In this document: positions 19,667 to 45,236 of the stretch, one piece after another
Numbering within the stretch: the stretch's first letter is position 1
Layout: each line of letters begins with the position of its first letter
Origin: Escherichia coli
Lineage (GTDB): Bacteria; Pseudomonadota; Gammaproteobacteria; Enterobacterales; Enterobacteriaceae
Length of the DNA stretch: 64,000 bases
NCBI RefSeq assembly: GCF_050920415.1
Contig: NZ_CP169309.1
Direction: 5' to 3' (one strand)
The notes under the pieces: model-generated
Databases searched by the model: none
Told to the model about the DNA's origin: nothing
What the model saw: only the letters and a program-made list of their open reading frames with translations
Made by a program: the position numbers and the translations under genes

Positions 19667-20707
19667 TCATTTATCGGAAGACGCCTGCCACAGATTCAGC
19701 TCGCCATCGGCGATATGCTGATCAATCTGCGCCAGCTCCTCGGTGCTAAATGTCAGATTATTCAGCGCCTGGACGTTCTCTTCCAGTTGCTCCGCGCGGC
19801 TGGCACCAATCAATACCGACGTCACTCGCTCATCTTTCAGCAACCAGCTTAACGCCATTTGTGCCATTGATTGTCCACGCTGCTGTGCCATTTCATTCAA
19901 TAACCGCAGGCTGTTGAGGTTGGCTTCGGTGAGCATTTTCGGCGTCAGACCACGAACTTTATTCCCTTCACGATGCATCCGTGAATCTTGCGGAATACCG
20001 TTGAGATATTTTCCGGTCAGCAATCCCTGAGCCAGAGGAGTAAAGGCAATGCAGCCCACGCCGTTATGTTGCAGGGTATCCAGCAGGCCGCTTTTATCCA
20101 CCCAGCGGTTCAGTAAATTGTACGAAGGTTGATGAATTAACAGCGGAATTTTCCACTCGCGCAGCAACTCGACCATTTTTTGCGTCCGCTCTGGCGAGTA
20201 AGAGGAGATCCCGACATAAAGCGCCTTACCGCTTTGTACCGCATGAGCCAGCGCAGAGGCGGTTTCTTCCATCGGCGTATTTTCATCGACGCGATGAGAG
20301 TAAAAGATATCGACATACTCAAGCCCCATCCGCTTCAGGCTTTGGTCGAGGCTGGCGAGCAGGTATTTACGTGAGCCGCCAGAGCCGTACGGGCCGGGCC
20401 ACATATCGTAGCCAGCTTTGGTAGAGATAATCAGTTCATCGCGATAAGCGGCAAAATCCTCCCGCAGCAGGCGACCAAAGTTCTCTTCTGCGCTTCCTGG
20501 AGGCGGCCCGTAATTGTTGGCTAAATCAAAGTGCGTAATGCCCAAATCAAACGCTTTGCGCAGGATCGCACGCTGTGATTCCAGTGCGTTAACGTGACCG
20601 AAATTGTGCCATAAACCGAGCGATAACGCGGGCAGGCGTAAACCGCTTTTTCCGCAATAGCGGTATTGCATCTGCCCGTAACGTTCGGGATTCGCTAACC
20701 AGACCAT
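19667..20707 (-). CDS. gpr: L-glyceraldehyde 3-phosphate reductase (aldo-keto reductase)
   Basis: ORF-track ORF 383 aa; start moved to internal Met (MVWLANPERY) to give the known 346 aa. Confidence 0.9.
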   Translation of the reverse strand: MVWLANPERYGQMQYRYCGKSGLRLPALSLGLWHNFGHVNALESQRAILRKAFDLGITHFDLANNYGPPPGSAEENFGRLLREDFAAYRDELIISTKAGYDMWPGPYGSGGSRKYLLASLDQSLKRMGLEYVDIFYSHRVDENTPMEETASALAHAVQSGKALYVGISSYSPERTQKMVELLREWKIPLLIHQPSYNLLNRWVDKSGLLDTLQHNGVGCIAFTPLAQGLLTGKYLNGIPQDSRMHREGNKVRGLTPKMLTEANLNSLRLLNEMAQQRGQSMAQMALSWLLKDERVTSVLIGASRAEQLEENVQALNNLTFSTEELAQIDQHIADGELNLWQASSDK

Positions 20708-20860
20708 GACCTCTCCTTTCCACCATTCAATTTCGAAACAATGTTTCCAGTTTAGCGATTTACCAGGGGGGATCCCGTAGCATCGCTCACAGTGTGACGA
20801 AAAACTGGGCAAAAACACGTGCTTATGCTTTGCTTAAAAAAACACCAATTGAGGAGTGCA

Positions 20861-21751
20861 ATGATGCCGCGTCTGACCGCTAAAGACTTCCCACAAGAGT
20901 TGCTGGATTACTACGACTATTACGCTCACGGGAAAATTTCGAAACGTGAGTTCCTCAACCTTGCGGCGAAGTATGCGGTGGGCGGGATGACGGCATTAGC
21001 GTTGTTTGATTTGCTCAAGCCAAATTATGCGCTGGCGACTCAGGTAGAGTTTACCGACCCGGAAATTGTTGCTGAGTACATCACGTATTCTTCGCCAAAT
21101 GGTCACGGCGAGGTACGGGGTTATCTGGTGAAGCCCGCAAAGATGAGCGGCAAAACGCCAGCCGTGGTGGTGGTGCATGAGAATCGTGGACTGAATCCGT
21201 ATATCGAAGATGTGGCACGGCGAGTAGCGAAGGCGGGGTATATCGCCCTGGCACCTGACGGCTTAAGTTCCGTTGGAGGTTATCCGGGTAATGATGATAA
21301 AGGTCGTGAGCTGCAACAGCAGGTTGATCCAACCAAACTGATGAATGATTTCTTTGCCGCAATTGAGTTTATGCAACGCTATCCGCAAGCGACAGGCAAA
21401 GTGGGTATTACCGGATTTTGCTATGGCGGTGGTGTATCGAACGCGGCGGCTGTCGCGTATCCGGAACTGGCCTGCGCGGTGCCGTTTTATGGTCGTCAGG
21501 CACCCACTGCCGATGTGGCGAAGATTGAAGCGCCTTTACTGCTCCACTACGCGGAACTGGATACCCGAATCAACGAGGGCTGGCCCGCTTACGAGGCGGC
21601 GTTGAAAGCCAATAATAAGGTCTATGAGGCGTATATCTATCCGGGGGTTAATCACGGATTCCATAATGATTCCACGCCCCGTTATGACAAATCTGCCGCC
21701 GATCTTGCCTGGCAAAGGACGCTGAAATGGTTCGATAAATATCTCTCCTGA
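20861..21751 (+). CDS. yghX: Dienelactone hydrolase family protein (intact YghX; possible Tat-type signal)
   Basis: Start at ATG 7 nt after GAGGAG; dienelactone-hydrolase-like translation; K-12 carries this as a split pseudogene (yghX/yghY) as I recall, here a single intact frame. Confidence 0.75.
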   Translation: MMPRLTAKDFPQELLDYYDYYAHGKISKREFLNLAAKYAVGGMTALALFDLLKPNYALATQVEFTDPEIVAEYITYSSPNGHGEVRGYLVKPAKMSGKTPAVVVVHENRGLNPYIEDVARRVAKAGYIALAPDGLSSVGGYPGNDDKGRELQQQVDPTKLMNDFFAAIEFMQRYPQATGKVGITGFCYGGGVSNAAAVAYPELACAVPFYGRQAPTADVAKIEAPLLLHYAELDTRINEGWPAYEAALKANNKVYEAYIYPGVNHGFHNDSTPRYDKSAADLAWQRTLKWFDKYLS

Positions 21752-21869
21752 TAGGTTTATCTCTTACGGGATTACGTCTTAAACAAGCATGAAAAAATAG
21801 CGTGCGCAAAAGTCGTTCTTTGCCTAAAATATCGCTATATATGACAATATATAGCGAATGAGGTGAACG

Positions 21870-22157
21870 ATGAATAACCATTTTGGTAAAGGCTTAATGG
21901 CGGGATTAAAAGCAACGCATGCCGACAGTGTGGTTAATGTGACAAAATACTGTGCCGATTATAAACGCGGTTTTGTATTAGGCTACTCACACCAGATGTA
22001 CGAAAAGACCGGAGATCGCCAGCTTAGCGCCTGGGAAGCGGGTATTCTGACGCGCCGCTATGGACTGGATAAAGAGATGGTAATGGATTTCTTTCGTGAG
22101 AATAATTCCTGTTCTACGTTGCGCTTTTTTATGGCCGGTTATCGCCTCGAAAATTGA
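21870..22157 (+). CDS. yghW: DUF2623 protein YghW
   Basis: 95-aa ORF; length and synteny match YghW. Confidence 0.8.
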
Positions 22158-22345
22158 TCAAACATACGTATTATCTTGCTTTAATTAATTACACTAATGC
22201 TTATTCCCTTCGTTTTAGTGCCCCGCCGCAGTATCATGATATCGATAACCATAATAAATGTGTGGTAAATGGCGCATCGATCGCATTATTGATTTTGCGA
22301 TTGAGGCAAAATATATGCCAGGTCTTCGCAACGGAATAACTATAA

Positions 22346-23464
22346 ATGACTGGAGATAACACCCTCATCCATTCTCACGGCATTAACCGTCGTGATTTCA
22401 TGAAGCTTTGTGCAGCATTAGCCGCCACCATGGGGTTAAGTAGCAAAGCCGCTGCAGAGATGGCCGAATCGGTTACTAACCCGCAGCGTCCGCCAGTTAT
22501 CTGGATTGGCGCGCAGGAGTGCACCGGTTGTACGGAATCTCTGCTTCGTGCAACGCATCCAACGGTAGAAAACCTCGTGCTGGAGACTATCTCTCTGGAG
22601 TATCACGAAGTGCTTTCCGCCGCCTTCGGTCATCAGGTCGAAGAGAACAAACATAACGCTCTCGAGAAGTACAAAGGGCAGTATGTGTTAGTGGTGGATG
22701 GCTCCATCCCATTAAAAGATAATGGTATTTATTGCATGGTTGCCGGTGAGCCGATTGTGGATCACATCCGCAAAGCGGCGGAAGGCGCAGCAGCCATTAT
22801 CGCTATCGGTTCCTGCTCTGCGTGGGGCGGTGTTGCCGCAGCTGGAGTTAACCCAACTGGCGCAGTCAGCCTGCAAGAAGTTCTACCGGGCAAAACCGTT
22901 ATCAACATTCCAGGTTGCCCGCCGAACCCGCACAACTTCCTCGCGACCGTTGCGCACATCATCACTTACGGCAAACCGCCGAAACTGGATGACAAAAACC
23001 GTCCGACTTTCGCCTATGGCCGTCTGATTCACGAACACTGCGAACGCCGCCCGCACTTCGATGCTGGTCGTTTTGCCAAAGAGTTCGGTGATGAAGGCCA
23101 CCGCGAAGGCTGGTGCCTGTACCACCTCGGCTGTAAAGGGCCAGAAACTTACGGCAACTGCTCAACGCTGCAATTCTGCGATGTTGGTGGTGTGTGGCCG
23201 GTGGCGATTGGTCACCCGTGCTATGGCTGTAACGAAGAAGGTATCGGCTTCCATAAAGGCATCCATCAGCTTGCCAACGTCGAAAACCAGACTCCGCGTT
23301 CGCAGAAACCGGATGTTAACGCTAAAGAGGGCGGCAACGTCTCTGCGGGCGCTATCGGTTTGCTCGGCGGTGTGGTTGGGCTGGTTGCCGGTGTCAGCGT
23401 GATGGCGGTGCGTGAACTGGGTCGTCAGCAAAAGAAAGATAACGCTGACTCACGGGGAGAATAA
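22346..23464 (+). CDS. hybO: Hydrogenase-2 small subunit
   Basis: 372-aa ORF; Tat signal (RRDFMK); NiFe hydrogenase small-subunit cysteine motifs. Confidence 0.93.
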
Positions 23465-35393: not shown

Positions 35394-36152
35394 ATGGATG
35401 CACTACAAACACAAACTGTTAATAGTACAACCGCGCCGCAGCCCAACTACATTCCGGGGCTGATTGCGGTGGTCGGGTGTGATGGCACCGGTAAATCCAC
35501 ACTGACCACTGACCTGGTGAAATCGCTGCAACAACACTGGCAAACCGAGCGCCGCTATCTGGGGCTGCTCTCCGGCGAAGACGGCGACAAAATCAAACGG
35601 TTGCCGCTCGTTGGCGTCTGGCTGGAACGGCGACTGGCGGCCAAATCCTCGAAAACCCAAAGCATGAAAACCAAATCTCCGGCGCTATGGGCGGCGGTGA
35701 TTATGTACTGCTTCTCGCTGCGAAGAATGGCGAATCTACGCAAGGTTCAGCGACTGGCGCAAAGTGGCGTTCTGGTGGTCAGCGATCGCTTCCCGCAGGC
35801 TGAAATTTCGGGCTTTTATTATGACGGACCGGGGATTGGCATCGAGCGTGCGACCGGGAAAATCAGCATGTTTCTGGCCCAGCGCGAACGGCGTTTATAC
35901 CAAAAAATGGCGCAATACCGTCCTGAATTAATTATTCGTTTGGGGATTGATATTGATACTGCCATCTCCCGCAAGCCTGACCATGACTATGCCGAGCTGC
36001 AGGACAAAATCGGTGTCATGTCGACGATTGGCTATAACGGCACAAAAATTCTTGAGATTGATTCCAGAGCGCCCTACAGCGAAGTGCTGGAACAGGCACA
36101 GAAGGCGGTTTCTCTGGTTGCAATCGTTTCTGACCGCCGAAGTTTAACTTAA
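35394..36152 (+). CDS. yghR: P-loop kinase-like protein
   Basis: 252-aa ORF; GCDGTGKST and VSDRFP motifs. Confidence 0.85.
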   Translation: MDALQTQTVNSTTAPQPNYIPGLIAVVGCDGTGKSTLTTDLVKSLQQHWQTERRYLGLLSGEDGDKIKRLPLVGVWLERRLAAKSSKTQSMKTKSPALWAAVIMYCFSLRRMANLRKVQRLAQSGVLVVSDRFPQAEISGFYYDGPGIGIERATGKISMFLAQRERRLYQKMAQYRPELIIRLGIDIDTAISRKPDHDYAELQDKIGVMSTIGYNGTKILEIDSRAPYSEVLEQAQKAVSLVAIVSDRRSLT

Positions 36153-36197
36153 GGTTGGCGGGATACTTTTTATTATCAACGATAAGGTCAGGCTGAA

Positions 36198-37547
36198 TTG
36201 GCGGGGTTTAACATCAAACATTGGTTTGCAGATGGCGCGTTTCGCACCATTATTCGCAATAGCGCCTGGTTAGGCTCCAGTAATGTCGTGAGCGCTTTGC
36301 TGGGTCTGTTGGCGCTCTCGTGTGCCGGTAAAGGGATGACGCCCGCCATGTTTGGCGTACTGGTGATTGTGCAATCGTACGCCAAGTCGATCAGCGATTT
36401 TATTAAGTTTCAGACATGGCAGCTGGTGGTTCAGTACGGAACGCCAGCCTTGACCAATAATAATCCGCAGCAATTTCGCAATGTCGTCTCATTTTCCTTC
36501 TCGTTGGATATCGTCAGCGGCGCGGTGGCGATTGTCGGCGGCATTGCCTTACTCCCTTTTCTTTCCCATTCATTAGGTCTGGATGACCAAAGCTTTTGGC
36601 TGGCAGCGCTGTATTGCACGCTCATTCCTTCAATGGCTTCCTCCACACCGACCGGCATTCTGCGTGCAGTAGATCGCTTCGATTTGATTGCTGTACAGCA
36701 GGCGACGAAACCTTTTCTGCGCGCAGCGGGGAGCGTCGTAGCCTGGTATTTTGATTTTGGTTTTGCGGGTTTTGTTATTGCCTGGTACGCATCGAATCTG
36801 GTTGGCGGCACCATGTACTGGTGGTTTGCCGCGCGCGAATTACGCCGCAGAAATATCCATAACGCCTTCAAATTGAATCTGTTTGAGTCTGCCCGACACA
36901 TTAAAGGCGCGTGGAGTTTTGTCTGGTCAACCAACATTGCCCACTCCATCTGGTCGGCACGTAACTCGTGCAGCACAGTGTTGGTGGGGATCGTGTTAGG
37001 ACCCGCTGCCGCCGGGTTATTTAAAATCGCCATGACATTCTTCGATGCCGCCGGAACGCCAGCGGGTTTACTGGGCAAAAGTTTTTACCCAGAGGTGATG
37101 CGTTTAGATCCGCGTACCACCAGACCGTGGTTGTTAGGCGTGAAGTCCGGTTTACTGGCGGGCGGAATCGGTATTCTGGTGGCGCTCGCGGTGTTGATCG
37201 TCGGCAAGCCGCTCATTTCGCTGGTGTTTGGCGTTAAGTATCTCGAAGCGTATGACCTGATTCAGGTGATGCTTGGCGCAATTGTGATTTCGATGCTGGG
37301 CTTCCCACAGGAGTCATTGCTATTGATGGCGGGAAAACAGCGCGCTTTTCTCGTGGCGCAAACCATCGCCTCAATCGGCTACATCGTATTGCTGTTCATG
37401 TTCTGTCATCTGTTTGGCGTGCTGGGGGCTGCATTTGCTTACTTCGGTGGGCAATGTCTGGATGTGGTGCTCTCGTTAATTCCAACCTTAAAGGCATTTT
37501 TTCAGCGCCATTCCTTGCTTTATAACGCAGCCGGAGAGAAATCCTGA
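36198..37547 (+). CDS. yghQ: Polytopic inner-membrane protein, MOP/Wzx-like flippase family (putative lipid or polysaccharide flippase)
   Basis: 449-aa hydrophobic ORF; ORF-track start is TTG, so true start uncertain; synteny with yghRST. Confidence 0.75.
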   Translation: MAGFNIKHWFADGAFRTIIRNSAWLGSSNVVSALLGLLALSCAGKGMTPAMFGVLVIVQSYAKSISDFIKFQTWQLVVQYGTPALTNNNPQQFRNVVSFSFSLDIVSGAVAIVGGIALLPFLSHSLGLDDQSFWLAALYCTLIPSMASSTPTGILRAVDRFDLIAVQQATKPFLRAAGSVVAWYFDFGFAGFVIAWYASNLVGGTMYWWFAARELRRRNIHNAFKLNLFESARHIKGAWSFVWSTNIAHSIWSARNSCSTVLVGIVLGPAAAGLFKIAMTFFDAAGTPAGLLGKSFYPEVMRLDPRTTRPWLLGVKSGLLAGGIGILVALAVLIVGKPLISLVFGVKYLEAYDLIQVMLGAIVISMLGFPQESLLLMAGKQRAFLVAQTIASIGYIVLLFMFCHLFGVLGAAFAYFGGQCLDVVLSLIPTLKAFFQRHSLLYNAAGEKS

Positions 37548-38371
37548 TGATGAGAAAATATTTCCCGCTTGAGGCGAGCGAGCGTCTATTTATTGCAGTT
37601 GAAGAAGATGATGTCGTTGATGCGCAGGTCAGTTTACCGCCGACTATCGCAACAGGTTGTACCACCGAAATCATTCATGATAATTACGCGTTATGCCTGC
37701 AATTCTGGCTGAATGGCGTTGATCGTCAGGAATTACTGCGTTTAATCCACAAACAAGCCAAAGGCGAGGGGCTTACGGCTGACGAGCGTAAACAGTTTAA
37801 ATATATGCGGGCGCGTTATAAGCATCTACGTTTTGCCCAACGGTTGTATTTAAAAAAGCATCAGGCCGGATTTTTATTTGGCAAAACGACCGTTTTTCTT
37901 GGACGTTTTCAGGACGGCTTTCGTAACGGTAAGAAAAATATTGTGTCGTTTTACGGCAACCTTTTACGGATTTATTTAAGCTCTCCGGTCTAGTTGTTGG
38001 TGAACTATTCATTACGCCATAGCCAGTTAGAAAGCGTAAGCGGTTTTATTGCCTATCGGCAAAAGCAAATGCACCTCCTGAAAGAGATTATTGCCAAACC
38101 ACGGCTAACTGGCAGGGAATTTCATGATGTACGAAAAATAATCAGCCAGCAGGTTTCTTATTACGACACCCTAAGATCGCTTGATCCTGAAAATAAAGAA
38201 GCGTTACAGATTTCCCGCTTCCTCGCCGCCATTAATGGCCTGATGGGGGATAAACACGACGACATGGTGGCGGATGATATGGAAAACCGCCAGTCGTATG
38301 ATGCACCGATGGCGCTGGATAGCGATATTCGTCAGCGCTTAGAACTGCTGATTTCGCGTTTTCCGCTATAA
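37547..38371 (+). pseudogene. Hypothetical protein reading frame (275 codons) interrupted by a single in-frame TAG at 37991-37993; either a nonsense pseudogene or two adjacent ORFs
   Basis: ORF-track ORFs 37547-37993 and 37994-38371 are in the same frame and contiguous; start ATG overlaps the yghQ stop (TGATG). Confidence 0.4.
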
Positions 38372-38379
38372 CCGGAGCA

Positions 38380-38943
38380 ATGATGTCATCTCGTTTGATT
38401 ATTGCGCTGATTATCATGCTCTTAGCCCCGGGTGTGCAGGCGCACAATTTCGTCACTGGTAAAACGGTTACCCCTGTTTATATCCAGGAAGGCGGCGAGC
38501 TGCTTCTGAATAGCGACGACGAAATTCACTACCAAAAGTGGAACAGCACACAGCTGGCGGGAAAAGTCCGCATTATTCAGTATATCGCCGGGCGTAAGTC
38601 GGCGAAGAAAAAGAACTCACTGTTAATTAAAGCGGTTGAAGCGGCAAACTTTCCGCAGGATCGTTTTCAGCCCACCACCATTGTGAACACCGATGATGCC
38701 ATCTTTGGTACTGGCTATTTTGTCGTTGGCAAAATCGAAAAAAATAAACGCCGCTATCCGTGGGCGCAATTCGTTATTGACGGCAATGGACAGGGACGCG
38801 TTGTCTGGCGGTTGCCGGAGCAGAGTTCAACCATTCTGGTGCTGAATAAAGCCGGGCAAATTCAGTGGGCAAAGGACGGCAGCCTGACGCCGGAAGAGGT
38901 AGATCATGTCATTGCGCTGGCGCAGAAGCTGATCAATGAATAA
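38380..38943 (+). CDS. YtfJ-family periplasmic protein (signal peptide)
   Basis: 187-aa ORF; N-terminal signal MMSSRLIIALIIMLLAPGVQA; resembles E. coli YtfJ as I recall it. Confidence 0.6.
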   Translation: MMSSRLIIALIIMLLAPGVQAHNFVTGKTVTPVYIQEGGELLLNSDDEIHYQKWNSTQLAGKVRIIQYIAGRKSAKKKNSLLIKAVEAANFPQDRFQPTTIVNTDDAIFGTGYFVVGKIEKNKRRYPWAQFVIDGNGQGRVVWRLPEQSSTILVLNKAGQIQWAKDGSLTPEEVDHVIALAQKLINE

Positions 38944-38973
38944 AAAACTCAAAGGATTGAGGGCGTTAGTGAG

Positions 38974-40044
38974 ATGAAGCTGGTTGAACACTACATCATG
39001 CGTGGTACGCGCCGTCTGGTGCTGATTATCGTCGGTTTTCTGATCTTTATTTTCGCCAGCTACTCCGCACAGCGTTATCTGACCGAAGCGGCAAATGGGA
39101 CATTAGCTCTTGATGTTGTGCTGGATATTGTTTTCTACAAGGTGCTGATTGCACTGGAGATGTTGTTACCTGTTGGACTGTATGTGTCAGTTGGCGTGAC
39201 GCTAGGGCAGATGTATACCGACTCGGAAATTACCGCTATTTCTGCGGCGGGGGGGAGTCCGGGACGCTTGTACAAAGCCGTTCTTTATCTGGCGATACCG
39301 CTAAGTATTTTTGTCACCCTTCTGTCGATGTATGGTCGTCCGTGGGCTTATGCGCAGATTTATCAACTGGAGCAACAGTCGCAGTCGGAGCTGGATGTTC
39401 GCCAGTTGCGGGCAAAGAAATTTAACACTAACGATAACGGACGAATGATCCTTTCGCAGACGGTTGATCAGGATAATAATCGCCTGACTGACGTGCTGAT
39501 TTATACTTCTACTGCCAATCGAACCCGTATTTTCCGCGCCCGTTCGGTTGATGTAGTTGACCCATCACCCGAGAAACCGACCGTTATGTTGCATAACGGG
39601 ACCGCCTATCTTCTCGATCATCAGGGGCGTGACGACAACGAACAGATCTACCGTAATCTGCAATTGCATCTGAATCCGCTGGATCAAAGCCCTAACGTCA
39701 AACGCAAAGCAAAATCGGTCACGGAGCTGGCGCGCTCCGCCTTTCCTGCCGATCATGCCGAACTGCAATGGCGACAAAGCCGTGGCCTGACAGCATTGTT
39801 GATGGCGCTGCTGGCCATTTCATTAAGTCGGGTAAAACCGCGGCAAGGGCGATTTTCAACGTTATTGCCACTGACGTTGCTGTTTGTTGCCATTTTTTAT
39901 GGCGGCGACGTCTGCCGTACGCTGGTGGCTAACGGCGCGATTCCCCTCATTCCTGGTTTGTGGTTAGTACCCGGACTCATGCTAATGGGCCTGCTGATGC
40001 TGGTCGCACGCGACTTCTCTTTGCTGCAGAAATTTTCCCGATGA
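38974..40044 (+). CDS. LptF-like permease (YjgP/YjgQ family) paralog
   Basis: 356-aa ORF; N-terminal TM then large periplasmic segment then C-terminal TMs, the LptF/LptG architecture. Confidence 0.7.
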   Translation: MKLVEHYIMRGTRRLVLIIVGFLIFIFASYSAQRYLTEAANGTLALDVVLDIVFYKVLIALEMLLPVGLYVSVGVTLGQMYTDSEITAISAAGGSPGRLYKAVLYLAIPLSIFVTLLSMYGRPWAYAQIYQLEQQSQSELDVRQLRAKKFNTNDNGRMILSQTVDQDNNRLTDVLIYTSTANRTRIFRARSVDVVDPSPEKPTVMLHNGTAYLLDHQGRDDNEQIYRNLQLHLNPLDQSPNVKRKAKSVTELARSAFPADHAELQWRQSRGLTALLMALLAISLSRVKPRQGRFSTLLPLTLLFVAIFYGGDVCRTLVANGAIPLIPGLWLVPGLMLMGLLMLVARDFSLLQKFSR

Positions 40045-41120
40045 ATGTTTTCAGTCGCTATTTAATTCGTCATCTCTTTCTCGGTTTTGCCGCCGCCGCA
40101 GGGCTATTGCTGCCGCTCTTTACCACCTTCAACCTGATTAACGAACTGGATGATGTCAGCCCGGGTGGTTATCGCTGGACTCAGGCGGTGCTGGTGGTGC
40201 TGATGACCTTACCGCGCACACTGGTCGAACTTTCGCCGTTTATCGCCTTATTGGGAGGGATTGTCGGCCTGGGGCAGTTATCGAAAAACAGTGAGCTTAC
40301 CGCCATTCGCAGCACGGGGTTTTCTATCTTCCGTATTGCACTGGTGGCGCTGGTTGCCGGGATATTGTGGACTGTTTCATTAGGCACGATAGATGAGTGG
40401 GTGGCGTCGCCATTGCAGCAACAGGCGCTGCAAATCAAATCGACTGCCACTGCGTTGGGGGAGGACGATGACATTACCGGCAATATGCTGTGGGCCAGGC
40501 GTGGTAATGAATTTGTGACGGTGAAATCGCTGAACGAGCAGGGCCAGCCGGTGGGCGTGGAGATATTTCATTACCGCGACGATCTCTCGCTCGAATCCTA
40601 CATTTATGCACGCAGTGCCACCATTGAAGACGACAAAACGTGGATCCTGCATGGTGTGAATCATAAAAAATGGCTGAATGGCAAAGAAACGCTGGAAACA
40701 TCTGATAATCTTGCCTGGCAATCGGCCTTCACCAGTATGAATCTTGAAGAGTTATCGATGCCGGGAAATACTTTTTCTGTCCGTCAACTTAATCATTACA
40801 TCCATTATTTGCAGGAAACCGGGCAACCCAGCAGCGAATACCGCTTTGCACTGTGGGAAAAACTGGGACAACCCATCTTGACCCTTGCGATGATTTTGCT
40901 GGCTGTGCCGTTTACCTTTAGTGCCCCGCGTTCGCCTGGGATGGGTAGCCGTCTCGCTGTAGGCGTCATCGTGGGGTTACTCACCTGGAGCAGCTATCAA
41001 ATCATGGTCAATCTGGGATTGCTATTTGCGTTGAGCGCACCTGTTACCGCGCTCGGTTTACCGATAGCGTTTATGCTGGTGGCGTTGAGCCTGGTGTATT
41101 GGTATGACAGTCAACATTAA
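40041..41120 (+). CDS. LptG-like permease (YjgP/YjgQ family) paralog
   Basis: Start at ATGA overlap with upstream gene (MNVFSRYLIRHL); same architecture; 359 aa. Confidence 0.7.
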   Translation: MNVFSRYLIRHLFLGFAAAAGLLLPLFTTFNLINELDDVSPGGYRWTQAVLVVLMTLPRTLVELSPFIALLGGIVGLGQLSKNSELTAIRSTGFSIFRIALVALVAGILWTVSLGTIDEWVASPLQQQALQIKSTATALGEDDDITGNMLWARRGNEFVTVKSLNEQGQPVGVEIFHYRDDLSLESYIYARSATIEDDKTWILHGVNHKKWLNGKETLETSDNLAWQSAFTSMNLEELSMPGNTFSVRQLNHYIHYLQETGQPSSEYRFALWEKLGQPILTLAMILLAVPFTFSAPRSPGMGSRLAVGVIVGLLTWSSYQIMVNLGLLFALSAPVTALGLPIAFMLVALSLVYWYDSQH

Positions 41121-41154
41121 ACCCGCCGTGGCGCAGCACCACAGCGGGCTCACA

Positions 41155-42327
41155 TTACTGCTTCAGAGTAGCAAATGCCTGAATGATGGCATCGATTTGC
41201 TCACGAGTGTGGGCAGCGTTTACGCTACAGCGCAGCAGCGTGATGCCTGCAGGCGCGGCAGGTGGCAGGATAAGATTCACATAAACGCCCAGCGAAATAA
41301 GCTCGCGCCAGATGCGTAAACCTTCCTCTTTCGAACCGATTATTACTGGCACTACCGGGCTAATATGTGAACTTAACTCGTAACCCAGTTTTTGCAGACC
41401 GTCATACAGATGGCTGGCGTTATCCATCAGCTTTTGCCGCAACTCTGGTTGTGAGGCAATGGTTCTTAACGACGAGCGCACGGTCGCAATGCAGGACGGA
41501 GAAGGAGAGGCGGTAAAAATATACGGGCGGCTGCCGTAGCGCAGCACTTCCATCGCTTCCGAACCGACAGCAAAACCGCCAATCGAGGCCAGACTTTTAC
41601 TGAAAGTACCAACGATAATATCCACATCATCTTCAACGCCAACGGCTTCAGCCAGTCCGCGCCCCGTTGCGCCTAACACGCCAAACGAATGCGCTTCATC
41701 GACAATCAAATAACCACCGAGACGACGTTTGATATCAACAATTTCCGCCAGCGGCGCAACGTCACCGAGCATACTGTAGATGCCTTCAACGATGATAATC
41801 GCCTCTTTTGCCCGTTCACCGAGGCGAACCATGCGCCGTTCCAGATCTTTAGCATCGTTATGGCGGAAACGAATAATTTCCGCTCCACCGAGAGAACAGG
41901 CGTCATAAATACTGGCGTGGCTATCGGCATCCAGTAACACCACGGCGTTATGGTCGGCAAGTGCGCTGATGACACCTAAATTAGCGGTATAACCGGTTGA
42001 AAAAACGATAGCGGTAGGGCGATTGAAAAACTCGGCAATCTCTTTCTCTAACGCCAGATGTGGCGCATAGCTGCCATTAGCCATACGAGAACCGGTAGTG
42101 CCGGTGCCTTGTGCCGCTAATGCTGCCTGACCTTCGGTGATGGCATCATGATTGAAAGTTAAACCGAGATAATTATTAGTCCCGGCCAGAATCACTTTTT
42201 TATTGCCGATACGGCCTTCAGTGGCGGAGTACACTTCATCAATACAGGTACCAAACGGCGTTAATCCGTTGTCACTAAATTGCAGTCGCTCGCCAGCAAG
42301 GCGCGCATATTTATCGTATAGCCCCAT
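41155..42327 (-). CDS. PLP-dependent alpha-oxoamine synthase (serine palmitoyltransferase / BioF / Kbl family)
   Basis: 390-aa ORF; conserved VDEAHSFGVLG and PLP-lysine GTFSKSL motifs. Confidence 0.8.
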   Translation of the reverse strand: MGLYDKYARLAGERLQFSDNGLTPFGTCIDEVYSATEGRIGNKKVILAGTNNYLGLTFNHDAITEGQAALAAQGTGTTGSRMANGSYAPHLALEKEIAEFFNRPTAIVFSTGYTANLGVISALADHNAVVLLDADSHASIYDACSLGGAEIIRFRHNDAKDLERRMVRLGERAKEAIIIVEGIYSMLGDVAPLAEIVDIKRRLGGYLIVDEAHSFGVLGATGRGLAEAVGVEDDVDIIVGTFSKSLASIGGFAVGSEAMEVLRYGSRPYIFTASPSPSCIATVRSSLRTIASQPELRQKLMDNASHLYDGLQKLGYELSSHISPVVPVIIGSKEEGLRIWRELISLGVYVNLILPPAAPAGITLLRCSVNAAHTREQIDAIIQAFATLKQ

Positions 42328-42575
42328 TATTTATTCTCCAGCCATGGAAGTAGAGTTTCCATTAATTGCGCAGGGGTTTTGACATCCAGCAGAATATTAA
42401 TAGGAATGGAAATATCGAATCTGTCTTCCAGCATCATTAAGAGATCCATCACTTTGATCGACTCCAGGCCAAGATCGTTGACGAGATCGCTGTCGGGCTT
42501 AATTTCCACACCGTTTTCGACCAAATCCTGTAAACAGGAAAGGATGTAATCCATTACTATTTCACGATTTACCAT
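42327..42575 (-). CDS. Acyl carrier protein (dedicated, not housekeeping acpP)
   Basis: 82-aa acidic ORF with phosphopantetheine-attachment-like motif DLGLESIKVMDL. Confidence 0.75.
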   Translation of the reverse strand: MVNREIVMDYILSCLQDLVENGVEIKPDSDLVNDLGLESIKVMDLLMMLEDRFDISIPINILLDVKTPAQLMETLLPWLENK

Positions 42576-42606
42576 AGAAACGTTAACACACCTTTAAACA
42601 AGACAA

Positions 42607-43521
42607 TCAAAATAGCCCGCTGCGTAATGCGTGTTCCAGGCTAATCCCGGGAAACCAATTAATATCTTCAGAAATACGGTTATTACTTGCTGACCAGTCG
42701 GCGTGGGTTAATTCACGGATTTTCGAGCGGGTCAGCATAGGTTCTTTACCTGCCAGGCGACTCAACGCGGTACTGATATCCGCAAGGCAGGTGAGTACCG
42801 ACAGAGGAATACCAACCATTCGAACGGAACCGCAACGGGCGTCGGCGGCAAGTTGCTGTACGCGTTGCCAGTCATAGCCGCCGGCGACGCCATCGCATAA
42901 TTCATAGGTTTGCGTTTGTACAGTTTCGGCGCTTAACCACTGCCCCACGGCTTGCGCGAAATCGGTGACGTGCAGGAAAGAGAGCTGTGTATCTGGCGCA
43001 CCAAGTCGTGGCAGCAGGCCGCGCAGCATCCAGCCAAACAGCGGTTTTAACTCTTTATCGCCGGGACCATACACGGCTGTCGGGCGAAAAATGCCCAGCG
43101 TAATTTCGTCAGCCATTGCGGTCAGTCGTTGTTCGGCGACGTGTTTGGAATTTGCGTACCAGGAGAGTTCGGGATGGCGCGCCGCCAGCGAAGAGATAAA
43201 CAGAAAACGTTGGCAAAAGCCGCTCTCTTTTGCCGCTTGCATCAGGCGCAGGCTGCCGTCAACGTTACAGCGGGTAAAAATCTCTTCTTTGTGTCCGCGC
43301 ACTTGCCCGGCGCAATGGACCACCGCGCTGGCTCCGGCAACCAGTTCGCTAAGCGAATGTGTATCTTCCAGCGAACCGCGCACCCAGATGAGATTATCAT
43401 TGACGTGAGCGCGGGCAGTACGCGTCAATGCGCGAACGTGAAAGCCGCGGGCGAGCAGGTTATCGATAATATATTTACCGATAAACCCGGTAGCGCCCGT
43501 CACCGCGACAGTTTGATTCAT
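42607..43521 (-). CDS. NAD(P)-dependent epimerase/dehydratase-family (extended SDR) oxidoreductase; candidate 3-keto reductase
   Basis: 304-aa ORF; N-terminal Rossmann motif VTGATGFIG. Confidence 0.75.
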   Translation of the reverse strand: MNQTVAVTGATGFIGKYIIDNLLARGFHVRALTRTARAHVNDNLIWVRGSLEDTHSLSELVAGASAVVHCAGQVRGHKEEIFTRCNVDGSLRLMQAAKESGFCQRFLFISSLAARHPELSWYANSKHVAEQRLTAMADEITLGIFRPTAVYGPGDKELKPLFGWMLRGLLPRLGAPDTQLSFLHVTDFAQAVGQWLSAETVQTQTYELCDGVAGGYDWQRVQQLAADARCGSVRMVGIPLSVLTCLADISTALSRLAGKEPMLTRSKIRELTHADWSASNNRISEDINWFPGISLEHALRSGLF

Positions 43522-45236
43522 GCCATGGATTCCTGCACATGAAGGCTTGCAGCATAACGTTTTTTCGCTTCCGCACGGGCAGGCTTGCCGGAGGACGTTC
43601 GGGGAATACTGTGGGGCGGCAACAGATCGATAGCCGCTGTTACGCCAAATTCGCTTTGGATCCGTGCTGCCAGTGCGTGGATAAGCTGCCCACGACGTTC
43701 TTCGTCGCTGATCCTACACTGGATCTGCAAAATGATTTTTTCCTGGGCGGTAACAAAAGCAATCGCATCGCCAGAATGAATTTCCGGTTCCTGTTCCGCA
43801 ATATATTCAATATCCTGCGGCCAGATATTACGGCCACGAATAATAATCAGATCTTTAATGCGCCCGGTGACATACAGATAACCATCCAGCAGATAACCGA
43901 GGTCGCCGGTATCTAACCAGCCCGTCGCGGCAATCTCGTCTTGCGAAACCTGGTCGCCAAAGTAACCGCTCATCAGGCTGGGGCCGGAGATGCAAATATG
44001 GCCTACCACACGTTCCGCGACCGGCATACCTGCTTCATTGCGGATTTCAATGCCATGTTCCGGCAACGCTTTACCGCAGTTGACGAAAGTCGATACGGCG
44101 CGTGTTTCAGCACCCGGCGCGACGGCTTTGCCCTGATATTCAAGGATGTCGCGATCCACTTCGTTAACCACAACCCCGGAGGCTTCATCAGAGAAGCTGA
44201 CAGCCAGCGCATTTTCTGCCAGTCCGTAGCACGGCATGAAAGTTTTATCGTCAAAGTTAACCTGACGGAAACATTCAGCAAATTGGTGGAGTTGTTCTGC
44301 GGAGATGGGTTCTGCGCCAATACCAGCGACGCGCCAGCACGAGAGATCCAGTTCAGCGAGATCTTTTTCATTCACGCGGCGCTGACACAATTCATAGCCA
44401 AACGGCGGCGCGACGGAAACTGTGCCACGATTTTTACTGATCAATTTAAGCCATTGCAGCGGACGCATGGCAAAATCCTGAGTGCGCAAATAATCTACTG
44501 AGAGCTGCGTGGCGACGGGGGTCAGGAGAAAGCCGACCAGTCCCATATCATGGTAGAAAGGCAGCCAGGAGACGCAGCGGTCGCCAGGGCGTAATTTAAT
44601 GCCATCGTGGCTTATAGCACGTAGATTAGCCATCACTTCGCGATGGGTGATAATGACGCCACGGGGAAAACGGGTGCTGCCGGAGGTGTACTGGAGGTAG
44701 GCGATATCGTTCGGAACTGGACGCTGGAGTACAACATCGGCTTCCGGTAATGCCTTAAACCAGGCGTGGCTTAAAACATGTAATTCGGGGTTGTTATGCG
44801 TAGCAGCATTGACCAGTGGCAACCACTCATCACCAGTGATAATGGCTGCGGGCTGGCAACTAGCCAGTAAACCTTGCAGTTTAGCGCTCCAGGAATCCCG
44901 CTGACCGACGCCCATTGGAATCGCTAACGGGACGGCGACTAAGCCGGCATACTGGCAGGCAAAAAAAGCCTCTACAAACCCGCTACTCGTTTCGGCAATC
45001 AGCGCCACGCGATCGCCTTTTTTCAGATTTAGTGATAACAACCGCTTCGCACCAGCTTCGGCACACGCTTTTAACGTCTGATATTCCAGTTGATCTTCAA
45101 GTTGGCAACGTCTGTCATAAAAATTCATTCCGGCGCTACTCAGAGCGGCGTAGTCCAAAGCATCAACCAGCGTTGGAAAATCGGCATAGCGCATAGGTAG
45201 GGAATGCGTAAAGATGTTATTAGACATATACACCAC
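43518..45236 (-). CDS. Fatty acyl-AMP ligase / acyl-ACP synthetase (AMP-binding superfamily)
   Basis: 572-aa ORF; AMP-binding signature YTSGSTRFPRGV; overlaps downstream reductase gene by 4 nt. Confidence 0.8.
   Translation of the reverse strand: MVYMSNNIFTHSLPMRYADFPTLVDALDYAALSSAGMNFYDRRCQLEDQLEYQTLKACAEAGAKRLLSLNLKKGDRVALIAETSSGFVEAFFACQYAGLVAVPLAIPMGVGQRDSWSAKLQGLLASCQPAAIITGDEWLPLVNAATHNNPELHVLSHAWFKALPEADVVLQRPVPNDIAYLQYTSGSTRFPRGVIITHREVMANLRAISHDGIKLRPGDRCVSWLPFYHDMGLVGFLLTPVATQLSVDYLRTQDFAMRPLQWLKLISKNRGTVSVAPPFGYELCQRRVNEKDLAELDLSCWRVAGIGAEPISAEQLHQFAECFRQVNFDDKTFMPCYGLAENALAVSFSDEASGVVVNEVDRDILEYQGKAVAPGAETRAVSTFVNCGKALPEHGIEIRNEAGMPVAERVVGHICISGPSLMSGYFGDQVSQDEIAATGWLDTGDLGYLLDGYLYVTGRIKDLIIIRGRNIWPQDIEYIAEQEPEIHSGDAIAFVTAQEKIILQIQCRISDEERRGQLIHALAARIQSEFGVTAAIDLLPPHSIPRTSSGKPARAEAKKRYAASLHVQESMA

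Follow-up and report, generated by a model that had tools for sequence, protein, structure and literature searches.

What does yghX encode in a strain of Escherichia coli that carries the gene unbroken, and how exceptional is such a strain? The question is raised by a 64,000-nucleotide stretch of E. coli DNA (contig NZ_CP169309.1; hereafter ‘the window’), for which a sequence-only reading had reported a single uninterrupted dienelactone-hydrolase gene with a possible twin-arginine-like export signal, at a place where K-12 has a split pseudogene. The explanation that we favour, and that we hold as a whole to be probable, is that the window contains the intact and ancestral form of yghX, that its product is a cysteine hydrolase made as a Tat-type precursor, and that the gene was inactivated in K-12 by two deletions. 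The difference between the intact gene and the broken K-12 copy is real, but it is also ordinary and already known: there is a curated NCBI family model, a crystal structure of the mature domain and a recognised pseudogene status for the K-12 copy—the last being so familiar that the locus serves in strain engineering as a neutral site for integration, with papers describing genes integrated at ‘the pseudogene yghX locus’. The coordinates of the features discussed below are collected in Table 1.

Working along the plus strand of the window, we see an open reading frame that runs without interruption to a stop codon at 21749–21751, just as had been claimed. Three starts are possible for this frame: a GTG at 20819 (310 amino acids), an ATG at 20861 (296 amino acids) and a second ATG at 20864 (295 amino acids). 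The earlier count of about 296 residues, from the ATG that follows a GAGGAG motif, is right as to the motif and the approximate length but not as to the start, which most likely lies one codon further on, at 20864. We prefer this codon because a near-identical RefSeq record (four differences in the first 50,000 bases) annotates yghX at 20864–21751, because the codon at 20861–20863 is ACG in K-12, O157:H7 and ST131, and because MPRL or MTRL are the first residues in all of the orthologues compared; the ATG at 20861 is an extra, strain-specific codon. The GAGGAG itself is kept in K-12, O157, ST131 and Ecol_545.

An intact frame of 888 bases is not the product of chance here, since its translation scores 586.3 bits against the NCBIfam model NF041440 (‘YghX family hydrolase’; profile positions 1–292 of 292, curated cut-off 460 bits) and 164.6 bits against the Pfam model PF01738 (DLH; profile positions 1–217 of 217, cut-off 21 bits). 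The gene occupies its usual chromosomal position between gpr and yghW-hybOABCDEFG, as in other E. coli; its neighbours are yqhA, the divergently transcribed gpr, yghW and the hybOABC genes, the order gpr-yghX-yghW-hybO being that of K-12, and the locus was found in 5425 of the 5426 complete E. coli genomes searched.

Table 1. Features of the yghX locus, in window coordinates
Feature	Position	Strand	Basis or remark
gpr-yghX divergent intergenic region	20708..20863	.	gpr end 20707, yghX start 20864 (near-identical record)
Shine-Dalgarno GAGGAG	20851..20856	+	7 nt upstream of ATG 20864
yghX CDS, intact	20864..21751	+	295 codons + stop; NF041440, Pfam DLH, dN/dS
Predicted Tat-type signal peptide, codons 1–58	20864..21037	+	homology, hydrophobicity, 4ZV9 boundary
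Lys27-Arg28 (AAA CGT), position of the twin-arginine pair	20942..20947	+	alignment
TA of codon Tyr37, deleted in K-12 (2 bp) and kept in the window	20972..20973	+	alignment, translation
Mature alpha/beta-hydrolase (dienelactone hydrolase fold) domain, residues 59–295	21038..21748	+	4ZV9, AF2
C of codon Thr157, deleted in K-12 (1 bp) and kept in the window	21333..21333	+	alignment
Cys186 nucleophile, TGC in G-F-C-Y-G	21419..21421	+	aligns to ClcD 123
Asp233 triad acid, GAT	21560..21562	+	aligns to ClcD Asp171
His264 triad base, CAC	21653..21655	+	aligns to ClcD His202

The pairwise alignment with K-12 (strain W3110), suggested as a check by the sequence-only reading, places the K-12 lesions in codons 37 and 157, from which a TA and a C respectively are absent; the window retains both and does not carry the K-12-type pseudogene. 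Identity across the region, which would have refuted the sequence-only reading, is not observed: apart from the deletions there are about 27 substitutions over 1001 aligned columns, of which 19 fall within the coding sequence. In K-12, frame 0 runs into a TGA after 47 codons (at codon 48), and several more stops follow before the second deletion is reached. RefSeq flags the K-12 gene as ‘frameshifted’ and a K-12 paper lists a fragment ‘yghX_2’, in agreement with the description of the K-12 copy as a split pseudogene; the name ‘yghY’, also used in that description, was not found in the literature searched.

The two K-12 deletions sum to −3, such that codons after 157 are again read in the original frame, and the fragment bearing the catalytic triad shares its frame with the start. 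One might read this as an allele that is still alive, giving a full-length protein through ribosomal frameshifting or from fragments, but we find this barely conceivable: the TGA at codon 48 and the further stops lie in the way, the product actually observed is the 47-residue YqhI (see below), RefSeq treats the gene as frameshifted, and an allele with the 2-bp deletion alone makes the second deletion a step of further decay. The existence of that allele—seen in apparently about 50 genomes, with NZ_AP027873 checked directly—tells us that the 2-bp deletion came first and that the 1-bp deletion is later decay rather than rescue. A compensatory role for the second deletion was considered and rejected on this ground, as well as on that of the frame-0 stops between the two sites. 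As an aside, in NZ_AP027873.1 (L003, 365–1250) the segment from Ala38 to the stop is one open ORF in the +1 frame, with Met42 lying inside it; in principle, this allele could still yield an enzyme that has no signal.

The frequency of each state was determined in the 5426 complete E. coli genomes with junction probes of 48–50 nt, each matching one state only. At the 2-bp site (codon 37) the K-12-type junction is found in 1251 genomes and the intact junction in at least 3785, the remainder being accounted for by nearby SNPs; at the 1-bp site (codon 157) the corresponding numbers are 1199 and 4221. Expressed as proportions, the K-12 lesions occur in some 22–23% of E. coli genomes, with about 78% intact at the second site. 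Intact orthologues of 294–299 residues (85–92% identity) are also found in Citrobacter, Pseudescherichia, Enterobacter, Kosakonia and Leclercia, from which it follows that the intact form is ancestral. The window is the common, majority and ancestral state of yghX in E. coli: the strain does retain the intact form, as had been proposed, but there is nothing special in its doing so. Pairwise dN/dS values among intact E. coli alleles fall between 0.04 and 0.08 (0.03–0.09 at the widest), indicating strong purifying selection wherever the gene is intact, and a K-12 sequence with both deletions repaired differs from the window protein at only two residues, indicating that the K-12 lesions are young.

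The window allele has a peculiarity of its own at codon 76 (21089–21091), which encodes Ser; the residue is Pro in K-12, O157:H7, ST131, Ecol_545 and the close enterobacterial orthologues. Identity to the window of at least 99% over positions 20700–21900 is found in only 19 of 5425 genomes, making this a minority allele. Could yghX be open, yet already functionless in this lineage, with Ser76 possibly one of the causes? The gene is evidently dispensable, being lost in about 22% of genomes, and at least 90% of close homologues keep the Pro that Ser76 replaces. Set against this, the position is variable in distant homologues, dN/dS between the window allele and the others is 0.03–0.05, and the triad and all of the invariant residues are intact; we therefore consider loss of function in the window lineage to be highly improbable.

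The assignment to the dienelactone-hydrolase family is well founded. Beyond the full-length match to PF01738, the catalytic triad can be aligned with that of a characterised relative (Table 1), Cys186 and His264 are invariant in close homologues, and Asp233 is invariant in the homologue alignment A4. The structure deposited under PDB accession code 4ZV9 (‘EcoDLH’) is that of an orthologue, the YghX protein of E. coli O157:H7 Sakai, which shares the triad and the fold and is 98% identical over residues 59–294; an AlphaFold2 (AF2) model of the window protein superposes on it with an rmsd of 0.5 Å over 235 columns. Four residues separate the O157 allele (strain Z570), and likewise the 4ZV9 chain, from the window protein—V69F, S76P, S135N and Y229F—and the crystallised construct is without the N-terminal 60 residues. 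Published work on the O157 enzyme reports that phosphotriesterase activity is absent from the purified protein, and that the active-site cysteine is oxidised or modified in the crystal.

ClcD from Pseudomonas knackmussii (PDB: 1DIN and variants) has the same alpha/beta-hydrolase fold, with its Cys-His-Asp triad at aligned positions, and target-normalised TM-scores to ClcD structures are 0.83–0.85 (Foldseek against 1din: 0.83); the chain used, 4u2c, is the C123S variant, so that a Ser is found at the residue aligned with Cys186. The resemblance has its limits, however: identity is only ~25%, ClcD has 236 residues and no N-terminal extension (the match beginning at ClcD residue 5), and it belongs to the chlorocatechol pathway, which is absent from the yghX locus; a carboxymethylenebutenolidase activity (EC 3.1.1.45), with dienelactone as the substrate for YghX, is not supported. 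A putative DLH from Klebsiella pneumoniae (PDB: 3F67) is likewise an enterobacterial member of the family that shares its fold with YghX, but at 28% identity it falls in another subfamily and is not an orthologue; the solved chain is also without an N-terminal signal-like region. From the fold and the triad we infer that YghX acts by hydrolysis, through an acyl-cysteine intermediate. An earlier proposal by Rychlewski, cited in PMC3709699, took yghX to encode a cPHB polymerase on the basis of a GXCXG motif. We reject this reading, as GXCXG describes no more than the nucleophile elbow that belongs to the DLH fold, and nothing specific points to a polymerase. Gene context in two distant homologues (P0126 and P0139) offers neither a conserved partner or chaperone nor a clue to the substrate, both being monocistronic genes with unrelated neighbours (GFA, HNH and Oxidored_FMN).

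Turning to the N-terminus, we think it most likely that residues 1–58 are a Tat-type signal of a K-R variant. The predicted layout consists of an acidic/aromatic n-region helix, the motif S-K27-R28-E-F-L, an h-region (YAVGGMTALALF) and a c-region K-P-N-Y-A-L-A, with cleavage predicted before Thr59, after A-L-A; the same boundary at which the 4ZV9 chain begins. Consecutive arginines of the S/T-R-R-x-F-L-K type are not found, YghX reading S-K-R-E-F-L-N, and the motif in Enterobacteriaceae is invariably S/T/N-K-R-E-F-L. Among full-length distant homologues (representatives of clusters at 50% identity), on the other hand, some 40 of 58 have R-R-x-F-[LIM] at the homologous position and three have K-R, with R28 and F30 kept in 90% or more. 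Behind the RR pair these proteins have a generic Ala/Gly-rich hydrophobic stretch, usually ending in A-x-A; some end in lipobox-like sequences (LTALGC, LVAAC, SIAAC), and in some the catalytic domain is preceded by Pro/Ala/Thr linkers that vary in length. The ‘twin-arginine-like’ signal of the sequence-only reading thus has support from homology, with RR in most distant homologues, though the pair itself is K-R.

Tat signals with K-R, both natural and engineered, can be exported; that of Salmonella TtrB is a natural example. The likeness to YghX lies in the replacement of R-R by K-R within an otherwise consensus S/T-R-R-x-F-L-K. YghX differs from TtrB and its kind in having an extended and conserved n-region of acidic and aromatic character (L-[YF]-D-x-Y-x-H), and in that no gene for a cofactor-binding partner or chaperone lies near the distant homologues examined. 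Literature searches found no experiment on YghX export and nothing that links YghX to Tat; the genome and transcriptome papers that treat both dienelactone hydrolase and twin-arginine likewise include none, by titles and abstracts, on export of YghX.

The composition of the signal bears on the choice of export route. The h-region has a mean Kyte-Doolittle value of 1.59, compared with 1.76 for HybO and 1.57 for HybA from the window; both of the latter are bona fide Tat substrates, encoded 0.6–1.7 kb downstream of yghX. A basic residue in the c-region and low hydrophobicity of the h-region are typical of Tat signals, and YghX has a moderately hydrophobic h-region, a basic c-region residue (Lys52) and A-L-A ahead of Thr59. 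We regard it as improbable that YghX is instead exported by Sec, or anchored in the inner membrane through an uncleaved signal. Such a fate would suit the lost first arginine and a hydrophobic segment of ~20 residues; it sits poorly with the family-wide RR-x-F-L motif, with Lys52 and an h-region of low hydrophobicity like those of HybO and HybA, and with the conserved A-x-A site, whilst a stable membrane anchor is hardly to be expected where the charged Lys36 and Asp49 lie within the h-region. The two charges also count against the Tat reading.

In the explanation we favour, yghX would thus encode a precursor of 295 residues, in which a Tat-type signal (residues 1–58) with its first arginine replaced by lysine precedes the hydrolase (residues 59–295). 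The protein would fold in the cytoplasm before export by Tat, be cleaved after Ala58, and act in the periplasm, where the Cys186-His264-Asp233 enzyme should cleave an ester, lactone or thioester by way of its acyl-cysteine intermediate. In genomes of the K-12 type, inactivation proceeded by the 2-bp deletion in codon 37 and then the 1-bp deletion in codon 157; in K-12 itself translation now ends after 47 residues to give YqhI.

The AF2 model invites another view of the same residues. Residues 1–60 are predicted with pLDDT values of 88–94 as three short helices (11–21, 27–37 and 44–51), and pTM for the whole chain is 0.93; confidence of this order would not normally be expected of a signal peptide that is discarded, and the modelled N-terminus could pack on the enzyme. 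The L-[YF]-D-x-Y-x-H sequence upstream of the RR/KR pair is, moreover, conserved in homologues down to ~36–40% identity, and conservation of the n-region is above that usual for signal peptides. The N-terminal 58 residues could on these grounds be a structured three-helix cap, retained on a cytoplasmic hydrolase, with the Tat resemblance incidental in Enterobacteriaceae: besides the model scores, there is hardly any variation among genera in the n-region and in the ‘PNYALA’ segment, the pair is K-R and not R-R, and Pfam gives residues 1–36 a domain of their own (PF23678). We nevertheless judge a retained cap to be unlikely. Distant homologues keep R-R-x-F-L whilst swapping the segment that follows for Ala-rich stretches or lipobox-like ends, their variable-length linkers before the catalytic domain fit a signal rather than a packed domain, and the catalytic domain was crystallised without the N-terminal region. 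Decidedly doubtful, too, is a related idea in which the YqhI-like module keeps its targeting role but also binds the cysteine hydrolase, once folded and before it is exported, and there serves for instance as inhibitor, as intramolecular chaperone or in Tat quality control; were it true, YqhI of K-12 would be a free copy of the module and not a dedicated small protein.

The Pfam model PF23678 (‘YqhI-like’; gathering score 27 bits) matches residues 2–37 of the 296-residue form (codons 1–36 from ATG 20864) with 75.9 bits, and also matches distant DLH homologues; it corresponds to the n-region of the predicted signal. The published K-12 YqhI sequence, of 47 residues (MPRLTAKDFPQELLDYYDYYAHGKISKREFLNLAAKCGRRDDGISVV), is the exact frame-0 translation of the K-12 yghX pseudogene, made up of YghX residues 1–36 and 11 out-of-frame residues; it lies at 3165–3308 of the K-12 locus (L001), with its counterpart in the window at 20864–20971. 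Judged by sequence, YqhI is the translated stub of frameshifted yghX. The protein has been detected in K-12 by tagging and ribosome profiling, and is induced at low Mg2+; neither of the two papers on it mentions a pseudogene, yghX or dienelactone hydrolase. These data on YqhI synthesis show that yghX has a working promoter and translation start, and the K-12 ‘small protein’ is in our view better regarded as what remains of a frameshifted precursor.

At yghX, then, K-12 is the exception, and studies of YghX function or of the list of Tat substrates need a strain with an intact allele; YghX itself, with a pre-sequence conserved to an unusual degree, may be counted as a candidate Tat substrate of the K-R type.

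The intergenic region between gpr and yghX should hold the yghX promoter and leader. A consensus scan for sigma-70 promoters and terminators over 20600–22400 returned no promoter-like site in this region, and in total no more sites than in shuffled sequence.

Some further observations concern the surroundings of the gene. Directly upstream of the yghW ribosome-binding site, at 21832–21857, there is a perfect 11-bp inverted repeat (TCGCTATATAT-N4-ATATATAGCGA), the arms of which are identical in K-12, O157, ST131 and Ecol_545 whilst the 4-nt centre varies (GACA, TACG, GGCA); to us it looks like an operator or an RNA hairpin that may control yghW. Elsewhere in the window, the interval from ftsP to ygiQ (4853–7213) contains a ‘membrane protein’ of 474 amino acids and a ‘hypothetical protein’ of 224 amino acids, with no further annotation. 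The interval from yghS to yghO (35394–45227) holds, in the annotation of the near-identical RefSeq record, a block of ten genes: two hypothetical proteins, a ‘lipopolysaccharide biosynthesis protein’, a YtfJ-family protein and extra copies of lptF and lptG, together with serine palmitoyltransferase (spt), an acyl carrier protein, an epimerase/dehydratase and a fatty acyl-AMP ligase. The block looks like a lipid-building cluster equipped with an LptFG-like exporter of its own.
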